Shown here piece after piece: positions 1,979-22,012 of a DNA stretch of 64,000 nucleotides (positions within the stretch are counted from its first letter, which is position 1; each line of letters starts with the position of its first letter). The notes beneath the pieces were generated by a model, which was given only the letters and a program-made list of their open reading frames with translations, made no database searches and had not been told where the DNA came from. The stretch covers positions 113,119 to 177,118 of the forward strand of contig CAVTJQ010000020.1 in assembly GCA_963734975.1 (NCBI GenBank). The letters run 5' to 3'. The position numbers were made by a program, and so were the translations under genes. This DNA comes from an uncultured Gaiellaceae bacterium. Lineage in GTDB: Bacteria > Actinomycetota > Thermoleophilia > Gaiellales > Gaiellaceae.

Positions 1979-3052
1979 CTACCCGGCCTCGGTCGTCGTC
2001 GCCTCTGTCGTCGTCGGCGGGGGCGGCTCCTCGGTCGTCGTGGGTGGCGGCTCCGTCGTCTCGGGCGGCTGCTCCGTCGTGTCGGGGGGCGGCTCCGTCG
2101 TGTCGGGCGGCGGCTCGGTCGTGGGCGGCGGCGCGGTCGCCGTGGGCGGAGCGGTGGTCGTGGCCGGTGGTGGCGCCGTCGTCGTCTGCGCGGTGCTCGT
2201 CGGCGCAGTGGTCGTGCCCGTCGTCGTCGCGTCGGTCGTCTCCGCGGTCGTCACCGGTGGCGGTGCATCCGTCTCCGAGACGGTGGACTCCGTCGGCACG
2301 GACGCGGACGGCGATTCGGTCGTCGGCTCGTTCGTCTCCGAGTCGCCCGAGGTCGCGAGGAACGCAGCGCCGATCCCCGCGGCCAGCAGCGCTGCCACGA
2401 CGGCGCCCGCGACCACGACGGACCGCCTGTGTGCCGGGGCTGCTGACTCGAGCGGCGGCACGATCAGCGTCGTCGGCTCGGCCACGGCCGGCACGGGGAC
2501 GGCGACGTCGTCGAGGCGAGCGAGCAGCTCGGCACTGTCGAGCTCGCCGGCGAGGGCCGCGGCGGCAACCGGGGCGAGCGCCGGCGCGGCGGTCGCGAGC
2601 GCCTGCAGGATCCCGCCGAACGCGCGCACGTCGTCCAGCGGCTCTCCCACCCCGGCGAAGTCGGCCAGCTTCGCCCGGCCCTCGGCGTCGAAGAGGACGT
2701 TCGCCTCGGTCAGCGCGCCGTGAGCGACTCCCTGCTCGTGCGCGTAGGCGAGCGCCGCAGCCACGTCACGGGCAGCGGTGTGCGCATCCGCCTCGGAAAG
2801 AGAGGGGGCATCGCGCTCGGCGAGCGACCCGCCGGGCAGGTACTCCCGCACGACGAAGTGCTCGCTGTCTGCCTTCCCCTGGTCGAAGACGCGCGCGATG
2901 CTCGGGTGCGAGAGCGGCGTGACGTCCGTGCTGTCCGCCTTGCCGAGCCGCACGAGCACGTCCCGTTCGAGCTCCATGTCGGTCGCGCGCCAGCTCGATC
3001 CGCCCAGGGGCTCGCGCAGCTCGTAGCGGCCGGCGATCAGTCGCTGCTCCAC
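1979..3052 (-). CDS. Ser/Thr protein kinase-like protein with degenerate catalytic motifs (predicted pseudokinase), one TM helix and a Pro/Thr-rich tail
   Basis: 357-aa ORF with a Hanks-kinase-like layout (GRYELREPLGG..., HPSIARVFD, VVREYLPGGSL). The VAIK Lys reads VLVRL, HRDLKP reads AHGALTE, and DFG reads DFA. A TM segment VVVAGAVVAALLAAGIGAAFLA is followed by a T/P/E-rich low-complexity tail. Confidence 0.8.
   Translation of the reverse strand: MEQRLIAGRYELREPLGGSSWRATDMELERDVLVRLGKADSTDVTPLSHPSIARVFDQGKADSEHFVVREYLPGGSLAERDAPSLSEADAHTAARDVAAALAYAHEQGVAHGALTEANVLFDAEGRAKLADFAGVGEPLDDVRAFGGILQALATAAPALAPVAAAALAGELDSAELLARLDDVAVPVPAVAEPTTLIVPPLESAAPAHRRSVVVAGAVVAALLAAGIGAAFLATSGDSETNEPTTESPSASVPTESTVSETDAPPPVTTAETTDATTTGTTTAPTSTAQTTTAPPPATTTAPPTATAPPPTTEPPPDTTEPPPDTTEQPPETTEPPPTTTEEPPPPTTTEATTTEAG
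2046..2126. repeat. Tandem 21-nt repeat (about 3.8 units) inside the Pro/Thr-rich tail coding region
   Basis: The units ggcggctccgtcgtctcgggc / ggctgctccgtcgtgtcgggg / ggcggctccgtcgtgtcgggc / ggcggctcggtcgtgggc were read directly. On the minus strand they encode TTEPPPD-type heptads. Confidence 0.8.
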
Positions 3053-3139
3053 TCGAACGCTCTTCCTCCGCTGCGCGCGCGCTAACCGACACCGTGACCG
3101 CGCCGCTCTGCCCGCGGCGCACGCCCGTGACGCGTGGCG

Positions 3140-3922
3140 TTAGCGCGCCGGGCTTGCGATCACCGCGAAGACGGCGCCGACCGGATCCCGGAGGACTGCG
3201 TAGCGGCCGATTTCGGGGATGTCGGTGGGCGGCATCAGCACGTCCGCGCCGAGCTCGCCGGCATTCGCGACGGCCGCATCTGCGTCGTCGACCGAGAAGA
3301 CGGTGGCCCAGTTCGGTGGGATGTCGCCCATCCGCTGGCCCAGCTGCATCAGGCCGCCGATTCCCTTGCCGCCGACCTTGAGGACTCGGTAGGGCTCACC
3401 CTCCCCCATCGGCATCTCGTCGATTCCGTAGTCGAAGACCGCGCGGTAGAACGTCTCCGCCGCTGCGGCGTCCTTCGTCTGACACTCGTTCCAGTTGAGC
3501 GTTCCGTGCTCGTTCGCGAGCTGAGCGCCGTGGTGGGCGCCTGCCTGCCAGACGCCGAAGACCGCGCCGGTCGGGTCTTGCGCGACGGTCATGCGACCGG
3601 CATCGAAGACGTCGAATGGCTCGGCGAGCACGGTGCCGCCCGCCTCGCGAACGCGCTTCGCCGTCGCGTCGACGTCGTCGCTCGCGATGTAGGTCGTCCA
3701 GTGCGGCGGGACGCCCTCCTGGCCGGGCGGTGGCGGACTCGCCGCGGCGACCGACTTTCCCTCGAGGCTGAACATCGTGTAGCCGCCGGCTTCGGGGCGT
3801 GGGTCGCGATCGGCCTGCCAGCCGAAGAGGGCGGAGTAGAACGCGATCGTGGCGTCGAGGTCGGGGCTCGTGACGTCGACCCAGCAGGGCGTGCCGGGCG
3901 CGTACTCGGTGAACTCGGGCAT
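3140..3922 (-). CDS. VOC (glyoxalase/bleomycin-resistance) family protein, two-domain
   Basis: 260-aa ORF with duplicated halves (PCWVDVTSPDLDATIAFYSALFGW... and LNWNECQTKDAAAAETFYRAVFDY...). An AAGGAG Shine-Dalgarno lies upstream of the ATG at 3922. Confidence 0.85.
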   Translation of the reverse strand: MPEFTEYAPGTPCWVDVTSPDLDATIAFYSALFGWQADRDPRPEAGGYTMFSLEGKSVAAASPPPPGQEGVPPHWTTYIASDDVDATAKRVREAGGTVLAEPFDVFDAGRMTVAQDPTGAVFGVWQAGAHHGAQLANEHGTLNWNECQTKDAAAAETFYRAVFDYGIDEMPMGEGEPYRVLKVGGKGIGGLMQLGQRMGDIPPNWATVFSVDDADAAVANAGELGADVLMPPTDIPEIGRYAVLRDPVGAVFAVIASPAR

Positions 3923-4051
3923 GGCGGCTCCTTGTCGCTTTTCGTCTCTGCTAGACGTTGGGTCGGGCCGGATGTTTGCGTGGACGAAGAGTCACACTTT
4001 CGGCGCAAAGTTGCGACACGGCGGTGAGCGTTCGTCCGGCACGCTGGAGAC

Positions 4052-4603
4052 GTGACCTCCATGCACCTCGTCCGCCCGCCCCTGCCGGGCTCCTACGTCG
4101 TCTTCCTGCCGGTGCTCGCCGGGCCGTATCCGGGTGCGGCCAACGAGTGCGAGTCACGCCGGCGGATCGAGCGCGTGCTCGAAGCGGGCTGCGATCTCTT
4201 CCTCGACCTGACGGAGGCGGGCGAGTGCGAGCCGTACGCTCAGCTCCTGCCGCCGCACGTGCGCTACGTGCGTCTGCCGATGCGTGCCGGGGCGGTTCCG
4301 TCGGACGAGCAGATGGAGGAGATCGTGGCGGTGATCGACCGCTTCTCGGCCGCGGAGGGGTGGTTCCTGTACGTGCACGACGCGAACGGGATCGGCCGGG
4401 TCGGCACGGCGATCGGCTGCTGGGTCGGCTGTGCGGCCGGTCTGAGCCGCGATCCGCTCTCGCTGCTCGACGAGCTCCGGCGGTCGATCCCGAGGCCATG
4501 GCACCTGTCTCCTGCGTTGCCAGAGCAGCGTGCGTTCGTCCGCCGCTGGACGCACGCCCGGCGGCGGGAGTCGGCTCAACTTGTGGGAGGAGGGAGCCGG
4601 TAG
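4052..4603 (+). CDS. Dual-specificity/PTP-like phosphatase-fold protein with Asp in place of the catalytic Cys
   Basis: 183-aa ORF. Its P-loop-like segment VHDANGIGRVGTAIG aligns to HCxxGxxR(S/T)G with Cys replaced by Asp. The alternative start ATG 4061 has better SD spacing. Confidence 0.6.
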   Translation: MTSMHLVRPPLPGSYVVFLPVLAGPYPGAANECESRRRIERVLEAGCDLFLDLTEAGECEPYAQLLPPHVRYVRLPMRAGAVPSDEQMEEIVAVIDRFSAAEGWFLYVHDANGIGRVGTAIGCWVGCAAGLSRDPLSLLDELRRSIPRPWHLSPALPEQRAFVRRWTHARRRESAQLVGGGSR

Positions 4604-6473: not shown

Positions 6474-7491
6474 ATGCCTACGTTTTTCGATCTCCGCAAG
6501 CGCCATCTGCTCCTGTCTCTCGGGACGGTCGCGGTGCTCGTCTTGGTGGCGACCACGCCCCAGCTGCTCGGCGAGCAGGTGGCCGACGGGTTCCACGGGC
6601 TGCTCGTCGCGAGCCCGGCCTGGCTCTGGCTCGCAGCTCTCTCCTTCGCGACGCGCGCTCGTCGCCTCAGGTTGCGCCTGGCGCTCCGCCCTTCGCCGTT
6701 GCGGCGGCGAGCTCGGAAAGGCGGACGCGAGCGCGCGCTACGGCGTGGGCTCGCTCGTGAACGCGGTTGCGCCGGCGAAGCTCGGCAGCGCGCTTCGTCT
6801 CGCGCTCTACTCGCGCGTGATCGTCGGAGAGGGACGGCTGTGGACGACGGGCGGGGTCGCGGCCTCGATCGGCGCAGCTCGCTCGATCTGGGTCGCGGTG
6901 CTGCTCGCGTTCGCGGCGGCGAGCGGCGTCCTACCGGTCTGGCCGCTCGCGCTGCTCGCACTCGGGCTCGCCGTCGCGATCACGGTGGCTGTTCTGTCAC
7001 GCGATCGGAAGCCGAGCGCACGCATCGCGCACGTCCTCGACGCCTTCCGCGCGCTCGGCAGCTGCCCGCGGGCCGCGGCACAGCTCGTCGGCTGGGTCGG
7101 CCTGGCCGCAGCAGCGCGCATCGGCGCCGCGACGGCAATCGCAGCCGCGTTCGGCGTCGAACGTCCGTTGCTGGCCGCACTCCTCGTCGTGCCCGCACTC
7201 GACCTGGCGGGAATCCTGCCGCTTACCCCGGGCAACATCGGAATCGCGAGCGCAGCCGTCGCGTTCGCGCTCCATGCTCACGGTGCGACCAACGGCGCAG
7301 CGCTCTCGGCGGGAATCGCGTTCAGCGCGGTCGAGACGGTGACGAGCCTCGCCTTCGGAGCGGGCAGCGTGCTCTACCTCGCGGCCGGCGCGCCCGGTGC
7401 ACGGCGCTGGACGATGGCCGCGGCCGGCGCGACGGCCTGCCTCGGCCTGGGCGCCGCCTTCGGCGCGACCGTCGTGCTGCCGCTCGTCTAG
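6474..7491 (+). CDS. Lysylphosphatidylglycerol-synthase-TM-region/flippase-like (UPF0104) membrane protein, apparent +1 frameshift near 6651-6658
   Basis: The N-terminus MPTFFDLRKRHLLLSLGTVAVLVLVATTPQLLG...AWLWLAALSFAT is in frame 0 from ATG 6474. The continuation ALVASGCAWRSAL...ARYGVGSLVNAVAPAKLGSALRLALYS is in frame 1 (track ORF 6745..7491). The junction lies in acgcgcgc. Confidence 0.65.
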
Positions 7492-7833
7492 CGCGCGCGG
7501 CGCGGCGCCAGACCGGAGCGCGGGCAGCGGCTCCGCGGATCGGTCGGGATCCGGCGTCGCGAACGACGCATCGGCAAGTGCCCCTTCCACCGGGACGTAG
7601 CCCGTGCACTCGCATGGCGCGGAGCTCAGCGTCTGGAAGTCTCCGATTCTCCTGCGGCACTCACGCCGTCCGCCCTGGACGAAGACCCGCACATGGTCGC
7701 GACGCGGATGCCCGCAGGTATCGCAGAGTGGCGAGCCACCGCAGGTGGGACAGCCGCCGCCATCCGAGATCCAGCGGTGCTTCCGCCGCCTCCAGCTCGC
7801 GCCGCAGTAGCGGCACGCGATCGAGTCACCCAT
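7488..7833 (-). CDS. Putative small Cys-rich (zinc-ribbon-like) protein; 3' end uncertain
   Basis: The internal ATG at 7833 of shadow ORF 6997..7983 gives MGDSIACRYCGASWRRRKHRWISDGGGCPTCGGSPLCDTCGHPRRDH...CECTGYVPVEG. G/C dominates the third codon position. The frame stays open into the convergent gene, so a +1 indel would be needed to end it at TAG 7490..7488. Confidence 0.35.
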
Positions 7834-7876
7834 CGCTCGTGTATTCGACCGCGGGCCGCCGCGACTTGAGGCGACG

Positions 7877-9001
7877 CTACCGACGCAGGAAGCTCGGCGG
7901 CTCGAGCGGGTCCTCTGCTCGAGCCGGGCGACTCGTCGTTCCACTCGAGAAGGTCGGTGCCGGCGTGCGCCTGCGCGTGCCACCGAGACCCGTCGCGACC
8001 ACGGTGACCCAGACCTGACCGGCGAGACGCTCGTCGACCGTGGCGCCGAAGATGATGTTCGTGTCGTCGGTCGCGGCCGCGCGCACGGCCTCGGCTGCGT
8101 CGTTCACCTCGAGCAAGGTCAGGTCCTCGCCGCCCGCGATCGAGAGCAGGATTCCTCGGGCGCCGACGATCTCCGTGTCGATCAACGGCGAGCGGAGGGC
8201 ACGCTCCGCTGCCTGCTTCGCCCGGTCGTCGCCGGTCGCGAAGCCGATTCCCATCAGCGCGGAGCCGGCGTCGGACATGACGGTCCGGACATCGGCGAAG
8301 TCGAGGTTGATCAGCCCCGGCATCGTGATCAAGTCGCAGATCCCCTGGACGCCCTGGCGCAGGACGTCGTCGGCGATCTTGAACGCGTCGAGCATCGACG
8401 TCGAGCGGTCGAGCACCTCGAGCAGGCGGTCGTTCGGGATCACGATCACCGTGTCGCACGCAGCCCGCAGTTCCTCGACGCCCAGATCCGCGGAGGTCTT
8501 GCGCCGGGTTCCCTCGAAGCGGAACGGCGTCGTGACGATGCCGACGGTGAGCGCACCGAGCTCACGCGCGATCTTGGCGACGACGGGCGCGGCGCCCGTA
8601 CCGGTGCCGCCGCCCTCGCCGGCGGTGACGAACACCATGTCCGAACCGCGCAGCGCGTGCTTGATCTGGTCGTACGTGTCCTCGGCAGCGCGGCGGCCGA
8701 TGTCCGGCTCGGCACCCGAGCCGAGGCCCTGCGTGAGCTCGCGGCCGATGTGGATCTTCACTGGTGCGTCCGAGAGCTGGAGCTGCTGCATGTCGGTGTT
8801 GATGGCGACGAACTCGACCTGCGAGATGCCGGCGTCGATCATCCGGTTGACCGCGTTCAGACCGGCGCCGCCGACGCCGACGACGCGAATCACGGCGAGG
8901 TACGACGCGCTGTCGGCACGAGTGGAGTACTCGAGCCGCGGTGCGGGCTCGGGCATCGTCGTGTAGAGGCTCGTGGGCGGCTCGTATGGGCGCTCGCGCA
9001 C
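7877..9001 (-). CDS. ftsZ: Cell division protein FtsZ
   Basis: The ORF contains [21 protein letters not shown], the tubulin signature [21 protein letters not shown], and the C-terminal peptide [11 protein letters not shown]. The start is ambiguous: GTG 9001, ATG 8956, or further upstream via the ORF at 9300 if a 1-nt deletion is assumed. Confidence 0.95.
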
Positions 9002-10564: not shown

Positions 10565-11788
10565 TCAGACGGCGGCGGCGGCGCGGTCATGCGCGTCGCG
10601 CAACCCGAGCAATGTCTCGTCGAGCGAGCCCACGAGCGTCCGCCGGTCGCCGGCGCGTAGCACCTCGACGAGTGCGCGGCGCGCTGCGTCGGCGGCAGAC
10701 GGCGCCGCGGGCTCCCCGTCGGCGAGCGACCGAAGCGCTGCGTGGACGGCTCGCCGCTCCTCCGACGAGCCACCGAGCAGGACAGCGGCCCGGAGCGGCC
10801 AGGTGTCGCCGAGGAGCGCTCCGAGCGAGCCGCGGAGCTGCTCGGAGCGGAACGGCTCGTTCTGGAAGAGGGAGAGCTCCCAGCGGTCGAGCGCCTCCGC
10901 GAGCGGCGGATCGCCATCCGCGAGCAGGAGGCGCTGGAGCAGCTCCCTTGCCAGCTCCGCGCGAAACGTGTCGAGACGCGAGGGCTCACCGGGAGGCTGG
11001 GTGGCTGCGATCGGCAGCACCGGGCGGATCCCGAACGGGCGCCAGTCGAGCCGCTCGAACAGCACCGGGCCTGCCGAGACGGGCGCGGCGGTCGCGAGCC
11101 GGATCGCCGTGACGGCGTCGGCGAGCTCGGCCGGCGCGTCGGGCGCGTCCTCCTCCGCCTCGAGCCCACGCTCCAGCTCGAGCACGCAGTAGCGGTCGAT
11201 CTCGCGACCGAACCCGGGTGGGAGCAGACCCTGCGCCTCTGGCCAGTGCTGCGCGAGCTCCCCGGTTGCCCCGGCCCGAATCCGCAGCCCGTTCCCGAGC
11301 TCGACCTGTGTCACCACCGAGATGCCGACGAGCGGCGCCACGGCGGCATACGCGCGCGAGGTGCCGAACAGCGAGCGTGCCAGCTCCTCGTACGCCCGCT
11401 CGAAGGCGACGTCGTCCCAGTCGAAGCCGCCACACGACTCCGCGGTTGCGATCAGCAGTGAGAGCAGAACCGTGCGGAAGAGCGCCTGCTCCTCGGATGG
11501 CTCGGGACCTGCATGCGCGCGCGCGAAGATCGCCGCGGCGGGCTCGCGCATGAGCTCGTCGAGCGCGAGCCGGGCGTCCTCGCGGCCCGCCAGCTTCCGC
11601 TCGTGCGACTCGATGAAGCTGCGGACGAGCGGCCGGTACTCGTACAACGCCGGCCCGCCGCGCTGCACGTGCTCCTCGAACGAGAAGGGCAGCTCCTCGC
11701 CTTCCTCGAGCGCACGCCCCAGAAAGACGAACGCGCCGAGGCAGAAGGCGCGCAGGGTGAGATGAAGATGCGGAGCTCGGACTGCCAC
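10565..11788 (-). CDS. Conserved-looking hypothetical protein (~407 aa)
   Basis: This is the long ORF 10565..11911 with a coding-like composition. I prefer GTG 11788, which lies 8 nt after the upstream nei-like stop, because the track start overlaps that gene. No family was recognised. Confidence 0.6.
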   Translation of the reverse strand: MAVRAPHLHLTLRAFCLGAFVFLGRALEEGEELPFSFEEHVQRGGPALYEYRPLVRSFIESHERKLAGREDARLALDELMREPAAAIFARAHAGPEPSEEQALFRTVLLSLLIATAESCGGFDWDDVAFERAYEELARSLFGTSRAYAAVAPLVGISVVTQVELGNGLRIRAGATGELAQHWPEAQGLLPPGFGREIDRYCVLELERGLEAEEDAPDAPAELADAVTAIRLATAAPVSAGPVLFERLDWRPFGIRPVLPIAATQPPGEPSRLDTFRAELARELLQRLLLADGDPPLAEALDRWELSLFQNEPFRSEQLRGSLGALLGDTWPLRAAVLLGGSSEERRAVHAALRSLADGEPAAPSAADAARRALVEVLRAGDRRTLVGSLDETLLGLRDAHDRAAAAV

Positions 11789-11796
11789 CCGTCCGG

Positions 11797-12555
11797 TTAC
11801 GACCCGGCGGTCGCGGCTCCTGCCTGCGGCTGGCAGGTCGGGCACCAGTACGCGGTGCGGTTCTCGTCGCCAAGCCCGCGCGAGCGCACGATCGCGCCGC
11901 AGCGCCGGCACGGCCGTCCCGCCCGACGGTAGACGTTGCGGCCGGGGCGTCCGGTGGCCAGCGACTCGCGCATCAGACGGCGCGCAGCGGCGAGCGCCTC
12001 TGCGAGCTGCTCGTCACCGACCTCGGCGACGAGCGTCCGGGGCGAGAGGCGGATCTCCCACAACGCCTCGGCCATCCACATGTTCCCGATCCCGGCCACG
12101 AGCCGCTGGCTCTGGAGCGCCTCGCCGAGCGGGCGGCAACCGGCGCTCCGGAGCCGCGCCACGGCTGCCGTGACGTCGAAGTCGTCGGCGAGCACGTCCG
12201 GCCCGAGTCGCCGCACCGGACCGACGTCGAGCGAGAGCACCGGACCGTTCCAGAGCACGGCCTCGAGCTCGCTCGTGCGCAGAACGAGCCACGGCCTGCC
12301 AGTCCGCGCCGACCCGCGCGGCTCGACCCGCCAGCGGCCGCTCATGCGCAGATGGCTGCGCAGGACGAGCCCGCCCTCGAAGCGCAGCAAGAGGTTCTTG
12401 CCGACAGCCTCGACGGATTCGAGCACACGGCCGTCGATCCGCGGCGCGACACCGGTCGCCTGCGCCCGCGGATGGGGCGCCTCCACCTCGATGCGGCTGC
12501 CCACGAGGGCCTGGAGCCGCTCGGCGGCGCGGCGCAGCGAGTCCCCCTCAGGCAC
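11797..12555 (-). CDS. Fpg/Nei family DNA glycosylase (endonuclease VIII-like)
   Basis: The N-terminus is MPEGDSLRR (catalytic Pro2/Glu3). The H2TH region reads LVAGIGNMWMAEALW, and the C-terminal zinc finger reads CRRCGAIVRSRGLGDENRTAYWCPTCQ. Confidence 0.9.
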   Translation of the reverse strand: MPEGDSLRRAAERLQALVGSRIEVEAPHPRAQATGVAPRIDGRVLESVEAVGKNLLLRFEGGLVLRSHLRMSGRWRVEPRGSARTGRPWLVLRTSELEAVLWNGPVLSLDVGPVRRLGPDVLADDFDVTAAVARLRSAGCRPLGEALQSQRLVAGIGNMWMAEALWEIRLSPRTLVAEVGDEQLAEALAAARRLMRESLATGRPGRNVYRRAGRPCRRCGAIVRSRGLGDENRTAYWCPTCQPQAGAATAGS

Positions 12556-12591
12556 GAATCGAGGGTAGATGACAGCTAATGTGTCGCACCG

Positions 12592-13935
12592 ATGGACAAC
12601 GCTGGCACGCTCACCGTCGGCCCGAAGCGCGTCGACCCCGTTGCGGGGAGCGCGGCGCTTCGGGCACGCGCACAGGACCCGGTGGACAAGCGCGTGTTCG
12701 ATCGCCTCACGCGGCTCGTTGCAGCATTGCTCGAAGCGCCGGTTTCGCTGTTGATGATCTCCGACGCCGACGATCTCGTCTTCGCGAGCTTCGCCGGGCC
12801 GGCGGATCCATGGGGCAGCCTGCGGAGCTTTCCCCTCACGGATGCGTACTGCCAGTACGCGATCGGCAGCCGCGAGCCGTTCGTGGTCGAGGACGCGCTC
12901 GCCGATCCCGTCGTTCGCGACCTGCCCCCGACCACCGACCTCGGAGTCGTCGCCTACCTCGGCGTTCCCCTCCTCACCTCAGGCGGGGAGCCGATCGGCA
13001 TTCTCTGCGCGATCGACCTAGAGGCTCGCTCCTGGAGCGAACGCGACATCGGCGTCGTGAAGGAGCTCGCCGCGACGGTCATGGCCTACATCGAGACTCG
13101 GCCGACCGGGACGGAACGGGCATCGGGAGGATTGAACATCGCGGCGGTCGCCCGCAAGACAGGAATCGCGTCCGACACGCTGCGCAAGTGGGAACGCCGC
13201 TACGGCGTGCTCCGACCCAGTCGGACGCCGGGCGGTCAACGCCGCTACGACGACAACGACGTGGCTCGTGTGGAGTGGCTGCGCGACCGGCTGGCGGAGG
13301 GGTTCCGGATCTCCGAGGCGGCCGCGCTGCTCGATCCCGCCGGCGAGACGGCGTTCGCTTCGGCCGACGAGATGCGCGCAGCGCTCGTCGATGCGGCGCA
13401 CGCCGCAGATCCCGCACGGCTGATCGCGCTCGTCGAGCAGACCTTCGCGCTGAACCCGGTCGAGACGGCGATCGAGGAGATCGTGCGCCCCGCACTCGAG
13501 GAGATCGGCTCCGACTGGGCAGAGCGCAGCGGCGCGATCGCCGAGGAGCACCTGCTGACCGAGACGGTTCGAGCGCGGCTCGAGCGCATGCTCGCGGACC
13601 GGCGGCCCGGCCTCCGCGGCAAGGCGGTGCTCGCCTGCGGCCCGGACGAGCGCCACGACCTCGGCCTGCTCGCGCTCGCGGTGCTGCTCCAGGCGGACGG
13701 CTGGCTCGTGGCCTATCTCGGAGCGGACATCCCGCTCGACGCCGTCCTCGAGCTGGCCGAGCAGATCGAGGCCGACGCGCTGTGCGTGAGCTTCACGCTG
13801 ACCGATTCGTACGAGCGCTTCGTCGCCGACCTCGCGGACGTGACGCTGCCGGATCGGCTCACCGTCGTCGTCGGCGGTGCGGCGGCACCGCAGCAGCGCG
13901 GCCTCGCCGAGATCGTCGCCGGCCTGCGCGCCTGA
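12592..13935 (+). CDS. GAF domain - MerR HTH - cobalamin-binding (CarH/LitR-type) fusion regulator
   Basis: 447-aa ORF with a GAF-like N-terminal region (about residues 30-165). The MerR HTH reads LNIAAVARKTGIASDTLRKWERRYGVLRPSRTPGGQRRYDDNDV. The helical-bundle motif is WAERSGAIAEEH (W-x9-E-H), and the B12 loop is PDERHDLGL (E-x-H-x-x-G). Confidence 0.85.
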   Translation: MDNAGTLTVGPKRVDPVAGSAALRARAQDPVDKRVFDRLTRLVAALLEAPVSLLMISDADDLVFASFAGPADPWGSLRSFPLTDAYCQYAIGSREPFVVEDALADPVVRDLPPTTDLGVVAYLGVPLLTSGGEPIGILCAIDLEARSWSERDIGVVKELAATVMAYIETRPTGTERASGGLNIAAVARKTGIASDTLRKWERRYGVLRPSRTPGGQRRYDDNDVARVEWLRDRLAEGFRISEAAALLDPAGETAFASADEMRAALVDAAHAADPARLIALVEQTFALNPVETAIEEIVRPALEEIGSDWAERSGAIAEEHLLTETVRARLERMLADRRPGLRGKAVLACGPDERHDLGLLALAVLLQADGWLVAYLGADIPLDAVLELAEQIEADALCVSFTLTDSYERFVADLADVTLPDRLTVVVGGAAAPQQRGLAEIVAGLRA

Positions 13936-14357
13936 TGTCCTACGCCCGGTCAGCGGCCGCCGGTGCGATTGCGGCGACGACGTGGGGGCTGGCGGAGCCG
14001 CTCGATCAGCGTGTGCTTCGGTACGACTACTCCGACATCGCGCTGCTGGGGAAGGCCGTGACGCGCGGGCCGCGGTGGCGTCCGGTCGGGTTCGCGATCC
14101 ACGCGGCGAACGGGATCGCCTTCGGGCTCGCGCTCGAGGCGGTGCACCGGCGGACGGCGATCGACAAGCGGCGCCTCGCGCTCGGAGCCGCCCTCGCAGA
14201 GCACGTGGCGCTCTATCCGCTCTCCTACTTCGTCGATCGCCACCATCCGGCGCGCGGCGAGCCGGGGCTTCCGCCGCTGCTGACGAGCCCGCGCGCGTTC
14301 GCACAGGCGGCGTGGCGCCATGCGGTCTTCGGCACCGTGCTCGGCCGGCTCGCCTGA
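13935..14357 (+). CDS. Hypothetical membrane-associated protein, translationally coupled to the CarH-like gene
   Basis: The ATG overlaps the upstream stop (TGATG at 13933-13937). The product MSYARSAAAGAIAATTWGLAEPLDQRVLRYDYSDIALLGK...FGTVLGRLA is the only protein-like part of shadow ORF 12579..14357. Confidence 0.65.
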   Translation: MSYARSAAAGAIAATTWGLAEPLDQRVLRYDYSDIALLGKAVTRGPRWRPVGFAIHAANGIAFGLALEAVHRRTAIDKRRLALGAALAEHVALYPLSYFVDRHHPARGEPGLPPLLTSPRAFAQAAWRHAVFGTVLGRLA

Positions 14358-14376
14358 CGCGACCGCGGCCGTTGCG

Positions 14377-15958
14377 TCAACCTCGCGCGCGGTTGACTGC
14401 GGCGCAGAAGCGACCGTAGGTCTCGAGCTCGGCCTCGACCGGCTCGAGCACGAGCGTCAGGGCCGAGCTCTCCAGTCGCTTGCGCATCGAGCGGGCAGCA
14501 GCGCGCGCACGCCTGCGCGCGCCGCCTCCGTTCAGGAGACGTGTCAGGAACGCCACCGCGATCCCGCCGATCACACCGCCGAGCAGGAGACCGGTCGGCA
14601 GCGGCACGCCCCGCGCCTCCGGCACCGGCAGGACGTCGCCCAGGCGCAGGTAGTCGAGCAGGAACAACGCAAGCAGCCACAACACGCCGATCGCGACGGC
14701 GGCGGCCAGCAGCGTCTGCAGCGCGCCCGCGAAGCGCCACCAGCGCGGCCGCCGCAGCTGGAGGTCGGCTCCTGCGACAGCGCGGTCGAGCTCCGCGGCG
14801 ACCTGCGACTCGCGGCTCGTGGCGGCGCTTCGGACGAGTGCAGGCCATGGCTCCGGCAGCCCGGCCGCCGCCGCACTGCCCAGCGCTCGCGCCGCGTTCT
14901 CCACCTGCGCGACCTGAACCGCCGAGGCCGGCGGCAGCGACGTGTGGACTCGTTCCGACGAGTCGCCGCCGAGCCGCAGACGGCGGAGCGGGTCCGGCCG
15001 GAGGCGCTTGAGCCAGCGCACGAACGGCCACCCGGTCGCGAGCACCCCGCTCCGGCGGTGAGCGCGCTCCACGGCCCGGGTCACCGTCGCCACTCCCGCT
15101 GCGTCCTCGAGCGCCCGGCGAAGGCGCGCGTGCTCCTGCCGGCCGACGCGGCCGCCGTCGCCTCCGCAGGCGGCACCGAGACGCCCCGTCGCCGCCTCCA
15201 CGTCCGCCTCGAGCCGCGCGACGACAGCCTCTCGCGCCGCGACTCGCTCCGCCAGGAGCCGCCGCAGCTCGGGCAGCCCCGCGCCCGTGACGGTCGAGAC
15301 GGCGAGCACCGGAACCCGGTCGAGCCCATTGCGCTCGAGCAGCCGCACGAGGTCCGCCCGACACGATGCCAGCGCCTGAGCGTCGAGCAGGTCGGCCTGG
15401 TTGAGCACCACCGCCATGGCGTCGCCGTAACCGACGAAGCGCCGCAGGTAGCCGTCGTGCCAGGCCGCGTCCGCGTACTTCTGCGGATCGACGACCCAGG
15501 CGACCAGGTCGACGAGCTCGACCAGCCGGTCGACCTCCAGCCGGTGGGCGGTCTCGACGGAGTCGAAGTCGGGCAGGTCGAGCAGGACGAGGTCGTCCAG
15601 ATCGTGGCCGCGGGGCGTCGCCGTCGAGGCGGTGCCGCCGCGGCACCTCGAGCCAGTCGAGGAGCGCGGTGGCTCCGTCGCCGCCCCAGACCGCTGCCGC
15701 AGCCGCGGACGTCGTCGGCCGGCGCCGCCCGACCGACCCGAGGTCGGAGCCGGCGAGCGCGTTGAAGAGCGAGGTCTTGCCGGCGCCCGTCGGGCCCGCG
15801 AGCGCCACGACGGTCGATTCCACCCCGAGACCGAGTCGTGCTCCCGCCTTCGTGACGACGGCCCGGCCCGGAGCGAGGAGCTCGTCGTCGAGTCGCCCTT
15901 CGGCCAGCGACGTCGCCTCGGCAAGCGCCGCCAGCCGCACGTCGAGCGTGGCCGTCAC
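14377..15958 (-). CDS. Dynamin-like/HSR1-type GTPase with C-terminal TM hairpin; apparent +1 frameshift near 15606-15618
   Basis: The N-terminus VTATLDVRLAALAE...VVALAGPTGAGKTSLFNALAG...LLDWLEVPRRHRLDGD is in the frame of track ORF 14225..16333. The continuation GHDLDDLVLLDLPDFDSVETAHRLEVDRLVELVDLVAWVVDPQKY... is in ORF 14377..15924. The GTG start overlaps the upstream stop (GTGA). Two TM helices lie near the C-terminus. Confidence 0.8.
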
Positions 15959-17677: not shown

Positions 17678-20600
17678 TCAGGGTCGCAGGACGGCGCGGC
17701 GAGGGCCGGCCAGGAAGCCGGCCTCGACGAGCAGCGGCATGATCTCCGTCTCGATCACCGGTCTGCCGTCGAAGCGCTCGACGGCGAGCCGCTTCGGCTT
17801 GCCGCCGGTCACGGACGCGCCGCGCACGTGCGCGACCAGCGCCTCGATCGCCGGCCGCAGCCACGTCTCGTCGGGCTCGCGGAGCGGCACGAGCGTGCGG
17901 CCGCCGCGCTCGACGAAGAGCGCCGCCTCGCCACCGAGCAGGACGACCTGGGCACCGGCGACGCGTGCCGCCCGCGCACCGGCGCGCCTCGGCCACGGCA
18001 GCGCTGCGCCGTAGGGCTGCGCCGGGTCGGCGGCAGCGAGCACGAGCGGCTCCTCGTCGTCGCCGTCCCGGCCGCGCAGCTCGCGCAGTCGCTCGACCGC
18101 GCCGGCAAGCGCGAACTGGGCGCCGCCGAGCCCTTCGACGAAGTAGCCGCGGCGGCACACGCCGATCGTCTCCAGATCCTTCAGCTCGCCGTAGACCGCG
18201 CCGTAGCCGCCGGGGATGCCCTCGCCGCGGACGCCGTCGCGCGTGACGATCCCCTGCCGCTCGAGCAGGAGCTCGGCGAGCGCGCGCCGGTCGACCCCTT
18301 GTGACTCTGTGTCACCTGCGAACAGCCGCCCGGTGAGCGACCAACGTCCCTGGGTGGAGGTGATCGCGGCGGCGCGGCTGCGCGAGAAGCGCCGCGGGCG
18401 ACCTCGTGACACGGTGTTACGAGGCGTCGCGTAGCGGCGCCCGGCGCGCAGCGGCGTCCACGCGTCGTTCGTCACCTCGCCCGCCCAGACGAGCTCCCAG
18501 AGCGCCGGCAGCGCCGCCTCGGGCTCGAGCTCGGCGGCCTCGACGAGCGGATACCAGAACTCGGCGCTGCCGGTGAGCACCCGGCGGATCGCATCAGCCT
18601 CCTCGCTCTCGGGGGAAGGCGCGCCCGCGGGCTGCCCGAGCAACGGCGCGTCCTCGCGGAAGTAGAGCGCCACACGATCGAGCCCGGCGCCGACCCAGAC
18701 GACCTCGCCCGACGCACAGAGGGCGTCGAGCCAGGCAGGCTGATAGTTGGGCACGCGCCGCGGCAGCACCTCGGACTCCCAGAGCGAGACGGGGAGCGCG
18801 AGCCCCTGGAGCGGGACGAGCGCCTCGCGCAGGCTCGCCCGCCGGTCGATGCCGTGCCAGGCGGGCAGGAAGCGACCGAGCGCAGCCTGCTCCGCCGGCT
18901 CGACTTCCCGGCGCAGCGCGGCGAGCGAGGCCCGTCGCAGGCGCCGCAGCACCTCGGGATCGCACCACTCGCGCTCGGTGCCTCCCGGTCGGAGCTCGCC
19001 GCGTACGAGCGAGTTGTCCCGTTCGAGAGCGTGCAGGAGGTCGGCCACGTCGACGCCGAAGTGCTCGTTGGCCTGCGCGCGTCGTGAACGGCCCTCGGCC
19101 CTTCGCGAAGCGAAGCACGAGCTGGCGCAGCGAGTCGGGCCCGCCCTCGAGGAAGGCCTCGGGCAGCCCGCCGGGCGGCATCACGCCGAGCGCGTCGCGG
19201 TAGCGGCCCGCGTCCTCGGCGGCGAGCAGCCGCGCCTCGCCTGCGAGCCTGATCTCGAGCGCCCGTCGCTCGGCGACGAGCACCGCCGCGAACGCCTCGT
19301 CGTACTCGCCGGGGCGAAGGTCGCCGCGACGGCGCAGCACGTCGTGCAGCTCGTCGGGGTCGCGCGGGCTGCCGCGGAGCTGCGCCTCCACGTCGGCGAG
19401 CGCATCCGCGTCGATCAGCTCGCGCAGCTCCTCCTGCCCCAGCAGCTCCCGCAGCAGATCGCGGTCGAGCGAAAGTGCCTGCGCGCGCCGCTCGGCCGGC
19501 GGCGTGTCGTCCTCGTACATGTACGTCGCGACGTAGTCGAAGAGGAGCGACGAGGCGAACGGCGAGGCCGACACGGTCTCGACGTCGACGAGGTCGAGCT
19601 CGCGCGTCTGCAGCCCACGCAGGATCTGCTTCAGCGCGGGCAGGTCGAAGACGTCCTGGAGACACTCGCGGTAGGTCTCGAGCACGATCGGGAACGAGCC
19701 GTATTTTCTGGCTACCTGCAACAGCCCTTGTGCCTTCAGACGCTGCTGCCAGAGCGGCGTGCGCTGACCCGGGCGGCGGCGCGGGATCAGCAGGGCGCGG
19801 GAGGCGTTCTCGCGGAAGCGCGCGCCGAAGAGCGCAGTCTGCCCCACCTCGTTGACGACCAGCTCCTCGATCTCGTCGGGTGGGATCAGCAGGTCGGCAA
19901 CCGGCGGCAGCGCGTCGGTGTCCGGCAGGTGGAGCGCGATCCCGTCGTCCGACCAGATCGACTGCACCTCGATCCCGAGCGCGTCCCGCAGGCGGGCCGC
20001 GAGCGCCATCCCCCAGGGCGCGTGCACCCGGCCACCGAACGGCGTCAGGATGCAGACGCGCCAGTCGCCGATCTCGTCACGGAAGCGCTCGACCACGATC
20101 GTCCGGTCGGATGGCACCACGCCGGTGGCTGTCTGCTGCTCGCGCGAGATACGTGAGCAGGTTCGCGGCTGCCCGCTCGTCGAGGTGGTACTCGTCGCGC
20201 AGCCGAGCGAGGCCGACGTCGTGGCTCAGAGCCGACAAGCTCCCTCGAAGCCGCGCCGATCTTCTCGCCCAGCTCGTACGGCCGGCCGACGCCCTCGCCC
20301 TTCCAGAACGGGACGGCGCCGGGAACGCCCGGCGCGGGCGAGACGAGCACGCGGTCGCGCGTGATCTCCTCGATCCGCCAGCTGGAGGCGCCGAGCAGGA
20401 ACGTCTGACCCTGTCGCGCCTCGTAGACCATCTCCTCGTCGAGCTCGCCGACGCGCCCTCCGCCGTCCACGAGGTGGACGCCGAAGAGGCCGCGATCGGG
20501 GATCGTGCCCGCGTTCGTGACGGCGAGCCGGCGAGCGCCGGTGCGGCCTCGGATCACGCCCGCGGTGCGATCCCAGACGATCCGCGGCCGCAGCTCGGCG

Positions 20601-21940
20601 AACTCGTCGGAGGGATAGCGGCCGGCGAGCATGTCGAGCACGTTCTCGAGCTGCTCGCGCGAGAGGTCGGAGAAGTTGTAGGCGCCGCGGACGAGCCGGT
20701 GCAGGTCGTCGACCTCGATCTCGTCGTCGGCGGCGATCGCGACGATCTGCTGCGCGAGCACGTCGAGCGGGTTGCGCAGGATCGATGTCTCCTCGATCGC
20801 GCCGTCGCGCATCGCGCGCGCGACGACCGCGCACTCGAGCAGGTCGGCGCGGAACTTGGGGAAGATGCGGCCCTTCGAGACCGACGCGAGGTCGTGGCCG
20901 GCGCGGCCGATCCGCTGCAGGCCCCGTGCGACCGACTTCGGGCTCTCGACCTGGATCACGAGGTCGACGGCGCCCATGTCGATCCCGAGCTCGAGGCTGG
21001 AGGTCGCGACGAGGCACGGGATCTGCCCCGCCTTCAGCAGCTCCTCGATCTCGACCCGCTGCTCGCGCGCGAGCGAGCCGTGGTGGGCGCGCGCCAGAAC
21101 TTCTTCCGCGAGCTCGTTCAGCCGCAGCGCGAGCCGCTCGGCGAGCCGGCGGTTGTTGACGAAGACGATCGTCGAGCGATGCGCGCGGACGAGCGCCAGC
21201 AGCTCGGGGTAGATGGAGGGCCAGATCGAGTTGCCGCTCTCGTCGCCGGGCTCGCGCATGTCCTCGACCGGCACGACGACCTCGAGGTCGAGCTCCTTGC
21301 GCGTGCCCGCGTCGACGAGCTGGATCGGGCGGTCACCGCTGACGAACCGGCCGATCTCCTCGAGCGGGCGCTGGGTCGCCGACAGGCCGATGCGTTGCAT
21401 CGGTGCCGGCAGAAGCTGGTCGAGCCGCTCCAGGCTGACCGCGAGATGGGCGCCGCGCTTCGTTCCCGCGACCGCATGCACCTCGTCGACGATCAGCGTC
21501 TCGATCGTGCCCAGGATCGAGCGGGCCTGCGAGGTCAGCATCAGGAAGAGCGACTCTGGCGTCGTGATCAGGATGTCGGGCGGCGTGCGCACGATCGCCG
21601 CCCGCTCCTTCTGCGAGGTGTCGCCCGTGCGGACGGCCACGCGGAGCTCGGAGCGGAGACCGGCGAGCGGCCCGCGCAGGTTCCGCTCGATGTCGTAGTT
21701 CAACGCCTTCAGCGGCGAGACGTAGAGCAGCCGGAGACCCTCGCCCGGGTTCTGGGTCAGCCGGTCGATCCCGTAGAGGAAGGCGGCGAGCGTCTTGCCC
21801 GATCCCGTCGGCGCCTGGATCAGGACGTTGCCTCCGGTCGCGATCGCGGGCCAGCCGGCGACCTGCGCGGGGGTCGGGCCGGCGAACGCCCGCTCGAACC
21901 ATTCGCGCGTCCGGGGCGAGAACGGCGCGAGCGGATCCAT
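17678..21940 (-). CDS. lhr: Lhr-type large ATP-dependent DEAD/DEAH helicase, split over four frames by three apparent +1 frameshifts
   Basis: Track ORFs 20045..21967, 18594..20120 and 17678..19048 are consecutive Lhr segments. They carry QAPTGSGKTLAAFL, DEVH, VATSSLELGIDMG, then VVPSDRTIVVERFRDEIGDWRVCILTPFGGRVHAPWG, then DLLHALERDNSLVRGELRPGG. A short middle frame gives HDVGLARLRDEYHLDERAAANLLTYL. The junctions are near 20221-20230, 20139-20148 and 19074-19084. Confidence 0.85.
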
Positions 21941-22012
21941 GCTCACAGGGTACCCCTCGCCCGCCACCGTCCTTCGCGGACGTGTCTGGGGTCTGACCCC
22001 GGACGTGGCCGG

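Follow-up and report, generated by a model that had tools for sequence, protein, structure and literature searches.

The 64,000-nucleotide stretch of DNA analysed here (the window) comes from the metagenome-assembled genome (MAG) of an uncultured Gaiellaceae bacterium, which amounts to 3.19 Mb, is 77% complete and contains assembly errors. The subject of this study is a gene in the window that encodes a 447-amino-acid regulator, together with the short control region that it shares with nei, a divergent gene for a DNA glycosylase. The regulator gene is followed by a conserved open reading frame (ORF140) and nei by a conserved orphan gene (unk406), and a helicase gene, lhr, lies on the far side of the regulator. 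An earlier reading of the bare sequence, carried out without database searches (the original prediction), had described the regulator as a fusion of a GAF-like domain, a MerR-type helix-turn-helix (HTH) domain and a cobalamin-binding module of the CarH type. All of its coordinates were verified and are correct. The features of the locus are listed in Table 1.

A search against Pfam assigned four domains to the regulator, in the order GAF, MerR_1, B12-binding_2 and B12-binding, all of them above the gathering scores. The N-terminal part matched both GAF (E 5.6e-16, 59.7 bits) and GAF_2 (E 1.1e-12, 48.8 bits). The other three domains were found with E-values of 5.9e-15 (MerR_1), 2.4e-9 (B12-binding_2) and 4.5e-12 (B12-binding). 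The predicted GAF-MerR-B12 architecture is thus borne out by the domain searches. It also departs, as had been claimed, from the canonical two-domain CarH and LitR proteins, because the DNA-binding domain is not N-terminal and the GAF domain precedes the HTH.

CarH proteins are defined by the motifs RxWERRY, Wx9EH and D/ExHx2G/P-x41-SxT/V-x22-27-GG, and an intact Wx9EH together with the lower-ligand motif is the criterion that separates CarH from CarA (PMC9304148). In the regulator, the recognition-helix motif reads RKWERRY (residues 198-204) and is invariant in its clade. Wx9EH is found as WAERSGAIAEEH at residues 309-320 (W309-x9-E319-H320), and the lower-ligand loop ERHDLG (E353, H355, G358) is part of an exact regular-expression match to the full Rossmann motif, E353-x-H355-xx-G358-x41-S400-x-T402-x25-G428-G429. 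Both of the signatures by which the original prediction had recognized an adenosylcobalamin (AdoCbl) photoreceptor, Wx9EH and ERHDLG, could be aligned to the CarH protein of Thermus: W309, E319 and H320 correspond to W131, E141 and H142, and the lower-ligand histidine corresponds to H177. In an alignment of 23 diverse homologues with a mean column identity of 63%, the signature residues (Wx9EH, ERHDLG; H355, S400, G428G429) are invariant. The dimer salt bridge R176-D201 of Thermus thermophilus CarH (TtCarH) and its tetramer glycine G192 align with R354, D379 and G370 of the regulator, and these positions are conserved.

The best match to the sequence in the PDB is TtCarH (3whp/5c8d, E ~5e-29, residues 171-435). 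An AlphaFold2 model, for which the 23 homologues were used as input, reached a predicted local distance difference test (pLDDT) value of 81.8. The top Foldseek matches of this model were the full-length TtCarH structures 5c8d/5c8e/5c8f (E 1.5e-15), and the cobalamin-binding domains of the model and of TtCarH superimpose with a template modelling (TM) score of ~0.77 and a root-mean-square deviation of ~3.3 Å. Judging from its sequence and predicted fold, the 447-amino-acid protein is probably a CarH-type (class I LitR) photoreceptor-repressor with an added N-terminal GAF domain. As such, it would be expected to bind the cofactor, to respond to light and to repress transcription.

The genome contains a PduO-type adenosyltransferase gene and three methylmalonyl-CoA mutase genes, which implies that AdoCbl is made and used. 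A photolyase gene is also present and was taken as a sign of light exposure. There is no second CarH-like gene in the genome, and the only other B12-binding_2 match is MetH. The prediction that no carotenoid (crt) genes lie nearby is supported: no crt genes were found, and a phytoene synthase gene is absent from the whole of the 77%-complete genome.

Table 1. Features of the locus, with coordinates as positions in the window and residue numbers of the regulator
Feature	Coordinates	Strand	Basis
GAF-CarH regulator gene, 447 amino acids	12592..13935	+	open reading frame; Pfam; PDB sequence match; Foldseek
GAF domain, residues 34-165, after a 33-residue N-terminal extension	12691..13086	+	Pfam
MerR-type winged HTH, residues 182-248	13135..13335	+	Pfam MerR_1
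B12-binding_2 four-helix bundle, residues 263-331	13378..13584	+	Pfam; Wx9EH at nucleotides 13516-13551
Rossmann B12-binding domain, residues 343-432	13618..13887	+	Pfam; full lower-ligand motif
Shared control region, 36 bp	12556..12591	.	sequence; boxes conserved across ~57 loci
ORF140, conserved 140-amino-acid open reading frame	13935..14357	+	start overlaps regulator stop
nei, Nei2-type Fpg/Nei glycosylase/AP (apurinic/apyrimidinic) lyase, 252 amino acids	11797..12555	-	Pfam; NCBIfam; PDB match
unk406, conserved orphan gene directly downstream of nei	10565..11845	-	conservation in relatives
lhr helicase, two overlapping open reading frame pieces	18594..21967	-	same strand as nei-unk406

In the AlphaFold2 model, the strands and helices of the N-terminal domain agree with the GAF fold. 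The nearest solved GAF domain is that of Dcsbis (4zmu), both by sequence (E 2.3e-7) and by fold (E 2e-9). Dcsbis (PA2771) is a GAF-GGDEF diguanylate cyclase of Pseudomonas aeruginosa, so that its output is a cyclase, whereas that of the regulator is a DNA-binding photoreceptor. The GAF domain of Dcsbis forms the dimer by way of a four-helix bundle; no ligand is known for it despite a large hydrophobic pocket, and neither cAMP nor cGMP is bound. The motifs FCxHAI and GxLCxID are common to the two GAF domains, and the invariant cysteines of the regulator family, C87 and C139, sit in these motifs. Conserved cysteines had suggested a photosensory GAF domain of the bilin or haem type, but this candidate was rejected as unsupported because Dcsbis, which is not a photoreceptor, has the same cysteine motifs. 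By analogy with Dcsbis, the GAF domain of the regulator would most likely be a dimerisation module that is set directly on the DNA-binding heads; possibly, it is a sensor of a small molecule or a thiol. The original prediction had proposed that the protein integrates light with a second signal. Since the nearest solved GAF domain, that of Dcsbis, serves as a dimeriser and no ligand of it is known, such a second signal can be put forward only tentatively, and dimerisation is at least as likely.

Two versions of the extension of about 30 residues in front of the GAF domain (window 12592-12690; compared in L006-L037) are conserved, namely MENAGTLTVG... and MAQPLTPQGVRTG.... Of these, the former is unusually conserved in its nucleotides (ATGGAGAACGCTGGCACGCTCACCGTCGG), a rare GCT codon included. 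There may be a constraint at the DNA or RNA level in the 5' coding region of the regulator, beside the promoter. A 20-nucleotide inverted repeat with 80% complementarity in the same region (12620-12665) was dropped as a candidate, as its hairpin is no more stable than those of shuffled sequences (z -1.1).

To place the regulator among its homologues, we searched the protein database and found 880 relatives. The best 120 of these 880 all have the three modules, come from Gaiellaceae/Thermoleophilia MAGs and are named just "MerR family" or "GAF domain-containing". Among the GTDB species representatives, the GAF form was found in 29 loci, all of which belong to Gaiellaceae, Gaiellales or unclassified Actinomycetota; in this and all following counts, the loci are related and thus do not represent independent samples. 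In an even sample of the order, 210 of 401 genomes contained a CarH-like gene. Full-length GAF forms were limited to one genus in this sample: they occurred in the genome of the window and in 8 of the 11 further genomes of that genus, and outside it there was one GAF fragment at a contig edge, in another genus. The three-module architecture is frequent in soil metagenomes and confined to one small clade. A literature search revealed no GAF-MerR-B12 protein, or GAF-MerR-cobalamin-binding domain (CBD) protein, that had been expressed or characterised, and in the SignatureFinder survey GAF appears in the list of fusion partners of light-type cobalamin domains but was studied no further (PMC11796333). 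The original prediction would have been called into question by an architecture that was already common and characterised; because this one is uncharacterised and restricted to one small clade, it is not of that kind.

In a maximum-likelihood (ML) tree of the MerR and B12 part, 27 GAF forms make up one clade (SH-aLRT 100), which is nested among GAF-less, nei-linked proteins of other Gaiellales. The ML tree does not resolve the position of the divergent GAF form L029, and two changes suffice; a single gain of the GAF domain would still be compatible with these sequences. The GAF-less proteins (L034-L070; Gaiellales/Thermoleophilia) are positional orthologues of the regulator. They show 47-58% identity to it over the MerR and B12 part and occupy the same slot, with lhr on one side, nei2-unk406 divergent from carH on the other, ORF140 present or absent, and the same leaderless promoter layout. 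Between the starts of nei and of these genes there are 20-60 nucleotides, and an in-frame stop often lies immediately upstream of the latter, so that no GAF domain can be encoded at these loci. The recognition helix differs as well: it contains WERRY in 28 of 28 GAF forms, as opposed to WEQRY (rarely WESRY or WEERY) in 34 GAF-less orthologues.

Exactly 36 bp lie between the start codons of nei (GTG, complement of 12553-12555) and of the regulator (ATG at 12592), as had been predicted. In the window, a -10-like box precedes each start codon: TACCCT (complement of 12563-12568) lies 6 nucleotides before the GTG of nei, and TAATGT (12577-12582) lies 9 nucleotides before the ATG of the regulator. 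When ~57 loci were aligned on the nei start, the nei strand showed a conserved TAnnnT hexamer 6-8 nucleotides before the start codon, and the carH strand showed a conserved hexamer TA(C/G/A)TGT at a distance of 8-13 nucleotides. The two boxes are 4-14 bp apart across these loci and 8 bp apart in the window. As no leader of Shine-Dalgarno length fits into this space, both transcripts would be leaderless or nearly so, with two completely overlapping promoters. The conserved hexamers thus back the earlier suggestion of leaderless or overlapping promoters. A scan of 12350-14500 for promoters and terminators of the E. coli type returned nothing, and no -35/-10 pair was seen.

The CarH operator consists of three or four tandem 11-bp direct repeats (nnnnTnnACAn) that overlap the promoter (PMC9304148). 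In the GAF-less orthologues, TGTC is repeated at a distance of exactly 11 bp in 10 of 30 loci (shuffled sequences: mean 0.04, maximum 1) and GTC in 15 of 30, and spacings of 9, 10, 12 and 13 bp are rare. The TGTC repeats, of which there are two or three in tandem, overlap both the -10 box of carH and its start; two loci contain a match to the strict complement of TnnACA. Because they are of the CarH operator type, these 11-bp repeats provide good indirect evidence that the orthologous GAF-less CarH binds there and controls both promoters. Among the GAF-type loci, 11-bp TGTC repeats were detected in 1 of 27, and when 4-mers of any sequence were screened without bias for recurrence at 11 bp, these loci gave nothing. 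The window contains a GACA-N7-TGTC element between the two -10 boxes (12571-12585). A regulon search with the 28-bp core of the intergenic region revealed no second copy in the genome. The loss of the tandem repeats and the exchange of Q for R in the recognition helix coincide with the arrival of the GAF domain, which points to a remodelled operator binding.

The divergent nei contains the Pfam domains H2TH and Fapy_DNA_glyco. Its best PDB match is 8tjg (E 4.9e-27), ahead of E. coli Nei, and the best NCBIfam model is Nei2, with 130 bits and thus below the cut-off of 400. The hallmarks of Nei2 are an N-terminal Pro2-Glu3, a lysine near position 51 and a C-terminal tetracysteine zinc site; in mycobacteria, lhr and nei2 form an operon that is induced by damage, and Nei2 is specifically required to counter psoralen-UVA damage (PMC11323726). 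The protein encoded in the window starts with MPEGD (P2, E3) and contains VGK53N and the tetracysteine CRRC...CPTC. By these residues and matches, it is a Nei2-type enzyme. The original prediction had overlooked this type, as well as the orphan gene behind nei and the position of the regulator within an lhr...nei2 repair array. Among the loci with enough flanking sequence, a divergent nei is present in 26 of 26 of the GAF type and in 29 of 34 GAF-less ones (55 of 60 overall).

Downstream of nei, unk406 was found in 26 of 26 GAF-type and 29 of 29 GAF-less loci, and in three loci it is itself the only divergent gene. It follows lhr or nei2 in all cases seen. In relatives, the protein has ~406 amino acids; in the window, the start codon is uncertain and the reading frame overlaps the end of nei. 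Searches of Pfam and NCBIfam with unk406 yielded no match. Its homologues form more than 5000 clusters and are ~80% identical among close relatives, and of the 275 genomes sampled from the family, 270 contain the gene, mostly in a single copy. The AlphaFold2 model is confident (pLDDT 85.4), and a structure search with it gave no fold match in the PDB (best E 0.73). Based on this model and on its position, unk406 is likely to be a new partner of the Lhr-Nei2 repair system and to have a new fold.

In 46 of 52 related loci, lhr shares the strand of nei-unk406 and is located beyond the regulator, convergent to carH. In the window, the regulator cassette and two dynamin-like GTPase genes lie between lhr and nei2. 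In relatives without carH, the array is uninterrupted on one strand, either as lhr-nei-unk406 (G109, G250) or as lhr-unk406 with abutting reading frames (G202). Given this contiguous array, the simplest history is that an inverted carH cassette was inserted between lhr and nei2. A natural carH-less variant was seen within the same genus (L090, G250:C3:34500-48945, positions 2640-4130): nei is immediately preceded there, on its own strand, by a gene for a ~475-amino-acid membrane protein that lies convergent to carH in the sister loci, and the nei -10 motif is kept (CAGCTTAGAGC). The lhr gene of the window is split into two open reading frames, 20045-21967 and 18594-20120, which are in different frames and overlap. 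In relatives it is one open reading frame of 1466-1558 amino acids, and the split is probably a frameshift or an assembly error of the MAG.

The start of ORF140 overlaps the stop of the regulator (TGATG at 13933-13937), which confirms the predicted translational coupling, and 20 bp lie between its end and a convergent GTPase gene. Of the GAF-type loci, 13 of 29 have ORF140 next to the regulator, as do 18 of 35 GAF-less loci; where it is missing, a convergent gene abuts carH. The earlier description of its product as a hydrophobic membrane protein is doubtful, since its hydropathy is weak: the Kyte-Doolittle mean over 19 residues peaks at 1.36, whereas the usual threshold is ~1.6. The homologues of ORF140 comprise more than 5000 clusters, all "hypothetical", with the invariant residues E21-P22-x-D24, Y32-S33-D34, H56, N59-G60, E89 and R128-H129. 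Neither Pfam nor NCBIfam gave a match that would identify it, and a profile run against 1.84 billion representatives, with the longer hits scanned for domains, brought up only fusions to neighbour genes. One locus (L086, G007:C21:12500-27600, positions 7311-8502) has an ORF140 homologue divergent from nei with no carH between them, which shows that the tie of ORF140 to the locus is independent of the regulator. A metagenomic protein of 338 amino acids (P0402) combines the C-terminal B12 domains of CarH and ORF140 in one frame and represents either a natural fusion or a frameshifted gene call.

Taken together, these data suggest that the regulator controls nei2-unk406 in response to light. In the dark, the AdoCbl-loaded regulator would oligomerise and occupy the 36-bp region with its overlapping, back-to-back and nearly leaderless promoters. 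One of these promoters would give rise to the carH-ORF140 transcript and the other to the divergent nei2-unk406 repair transcript, and both would be repressed. Light would cleave the Co-C bond, upon which the oligomer would fall apart and both units would be expressed. As to the origin of this arrangement, an ancestral lhr-nei2-unk406 repair operon may first have received a plain CarH cassette, inverted, between its lhr and nei2 genes. This would have detached nei2-unk406 from lhr and provided a light-responsive promoter shared with carH. Later, and essentially in one Gaiellaceae genus, a GAF domain of the Dcsbis type would have been fused in front of the DNA-binding domain. We infer this mechanism from knowledge of the family, from synteny and from the contrast between the operators. 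The light control of a repair glycosylase that had been raised earlier as a possibility is thus supported as far as the link between the genes is concerned, which is conserved by synteny, and the light response as such is deduced from the family.

Several findings weigh against this reading. The inter-domain geometry of the AlphaFold2 model is unreliable (predicted TM score 0.49). With the NCBIfam CarH equivalog model NF052513, the regulator reaches 141 bits as against a cut-off of 400 (E 4.1e-41, residues 178-434), and it lacks the histidine after the tryptophan (WA...) that is common in CarH proteins. Wx9EH is degenerate in 4 of 28 members of the GAF clade (L012, L022, L024, L033), where the tryptophan is lost, the spacing is changed or EH is changed to ER, as opposed to 0 of 34 GAF-less orthologues. 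This damage may reflect a relaxed constraint on adenosyl capping once the GAF domain was present, or MAG errors; light sensing in the GAF clade may thus be under relaxed constraint. Tandem TGTnnA/TnnACA elements at 11 bp were sought in the 36-bp region of the window and in the GAF-type loci, and none were found. The GACA-N7-TGTC element is not enriched genome-wide (13 copies, ~20 expected), and no other convincing operator could be identified in the 36-bp region. As the MAG is 77% complete, crt genes or further targets may be unassembled. Finally, the adjacency to nei could simply reflect the insertion site.

This last point is central to an alternative that we consider unlikely, in which the regulator autoregulates just carH and ORF140, it came to lie beside nei2 because of where the cassette was inserted, and nei2-unk406 is constitutive or damage-inducible. 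It would fit the observations that nei2-unk406 are core genes, which most of the family has with no carH at all, that a CarH-like gene of any kind is found in about half of the genomes, as compared to the near-universal unk406, and that the carH-less relatives, one of them in the same genus, express nei2-unk406 from another context. The damage response of the mycobacterial lhr-nei2 operon (PMC11323726) would fit as well. However, with -10 boxes only 4-14 bp apart, any protein bound to the carH promoter necessarily blocks that of nei as well, and the divergent arrangement has been kept across deep divergence in 55 of 60 loci.

The deviations in and around Wx9EH, namely its loss or alteration in 4 of 28 GAF-clade members and the missing histidine in the regulator, would fit an alternative in which light is not the physiological signal. 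The cobalamin domain would then be a sensor of B12 status or a structural oligomeriser, similar to CarA, which is a precedent for B12-independent paralogues (PMC9304148), and the GAF domain, with its ligand pocket and the two invariant cysteines common with Dcsbis, would be the real sensor, e.g. of the redox state or a metabolite. Yet Wx9EH and the full lower-ligand motif are intact in the regulator and in 24 of 28 clade members, and the genome makes and uses AdoCbl, which makes this explanation improbable. It is highly unlikely that the regulator is a promoter-remodelling activator of the MerR style, as its family membership, the lack of a visible tandem-repeat operator in the GAF clade and the short inverted GACA-N7-TGTC between the -10 boxes might suggest, because every class I CarH/LitR protein characterised so far is a repressor, a long-spaced -35/-10 pair on which a MerR-type distortion could act is absent, and the GACA-N7-TGTC element is not enriched.

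Within the preferred reading, that of a light-dependent repressor of both transcription units, a more specific proposal is that a dimerising and possibly thiol- or ligand-sensing GAF domain was added straight to the DNA-binding heads and that the regulator thereby came to recognise, in place of tandem 11-bp repeats, one compact operator across the two back-to-back leaderless promoters. The Nei2-type repair module, made up of nei2 and the putative new fold of unk406 and split off from the lhr crosslink-repair operon, would then be gated by light and a second signal. We regard this as possible but rather doubtful. If true, this regulon for base excision or crosslink repair would be the first to be gated by light, and the regulator a natural CarH with two inputs.

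Compared with the CarH/class I LitR proteins of Thermus thermophilus, Myxococcus xanthus and Bacillus megaterium, which include its best sequence and fold match, the regulator has the same MerR winged HTH with RxWERRY, the same Wx9EH bundle and lower-ligand Rossmann domain, and conserved positions at the dimer and tetramer interfaces. It differs by the 180-residue N-terminal GAF module before the DNA-binding domain, the absence of a tandem 11-bp operator, nei2 and orphan neighbours in place of crt genes, the missing histidine and the NCBIfam CarH score below the cut-off. From its GAF-less orthologues, it is set apart by the GAF domain, the recognition helix and the lack of two or three tandem TGTC repeats at 11 bp; the orthologues start 20-60 nucleotides from nei. 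Other photoreceptors that combine a CBD with different partners (CtMerR 8jbs, B12-GGDEF, photoglobins) have the light-responsive CBD signature in common with the regulator, in which, in contrast, GAF precedes a complete CarH.

The LitR family is divided by its C-terminal domains into classes I-V, and members of class II control photolyase genes. A precedent for DNA-repair genes under the light control of a LitR/CarH-family regulator is the class II LitR of Pseudomonas that controls phrB. A light-regulated DNA-repair regulon is also reportedly controlled by the B12-dependent PhrR of Halomonas, which is said to have been described by Romine et al. in 2017. In these regulons the targets are photolyases, whereas the candidate targets here are a Nei2 glycosylase and an orphan, and the sensor contains a GAF domain. 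The mycobacterial lhr-nei2 operon for crosslink repair resembles the carH-less relatives, in which lhr is followed by nei2 on one strand, and the Nei of the window is closest to Nei2; the Gaiellaceae lineage adds unk406 as a third member, and in the window the regulator cassette and the GTPase genes are interposed. [quoted passage not shown]

Among B12 photoreceptors, CarH is the model, and it is in wide use as a part for green-light optogenetics. A natural CarH with an extra sensor or dimeriser domain before its DNA-binding domain is of interest in itself. The GAF and GAF-less orthologues in the same slot, the latter still with classic tandem-repeat operators, offer a ready-made comparison of oligomer architecture and operator design, which could yield a two-input switch. 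The locus also draws attention to unk406, a near-universal orphan at the level of the family and a likely partner of Lhr and Nei2. For the organisms themselves, the locus suggests that abundant uncultured soil Gaiellaceae may have put a Nei2-type repair module under light control; in mycobacteria, Nei2 acts specifically on psoralen-UVA damage, which is itself light-dependent.

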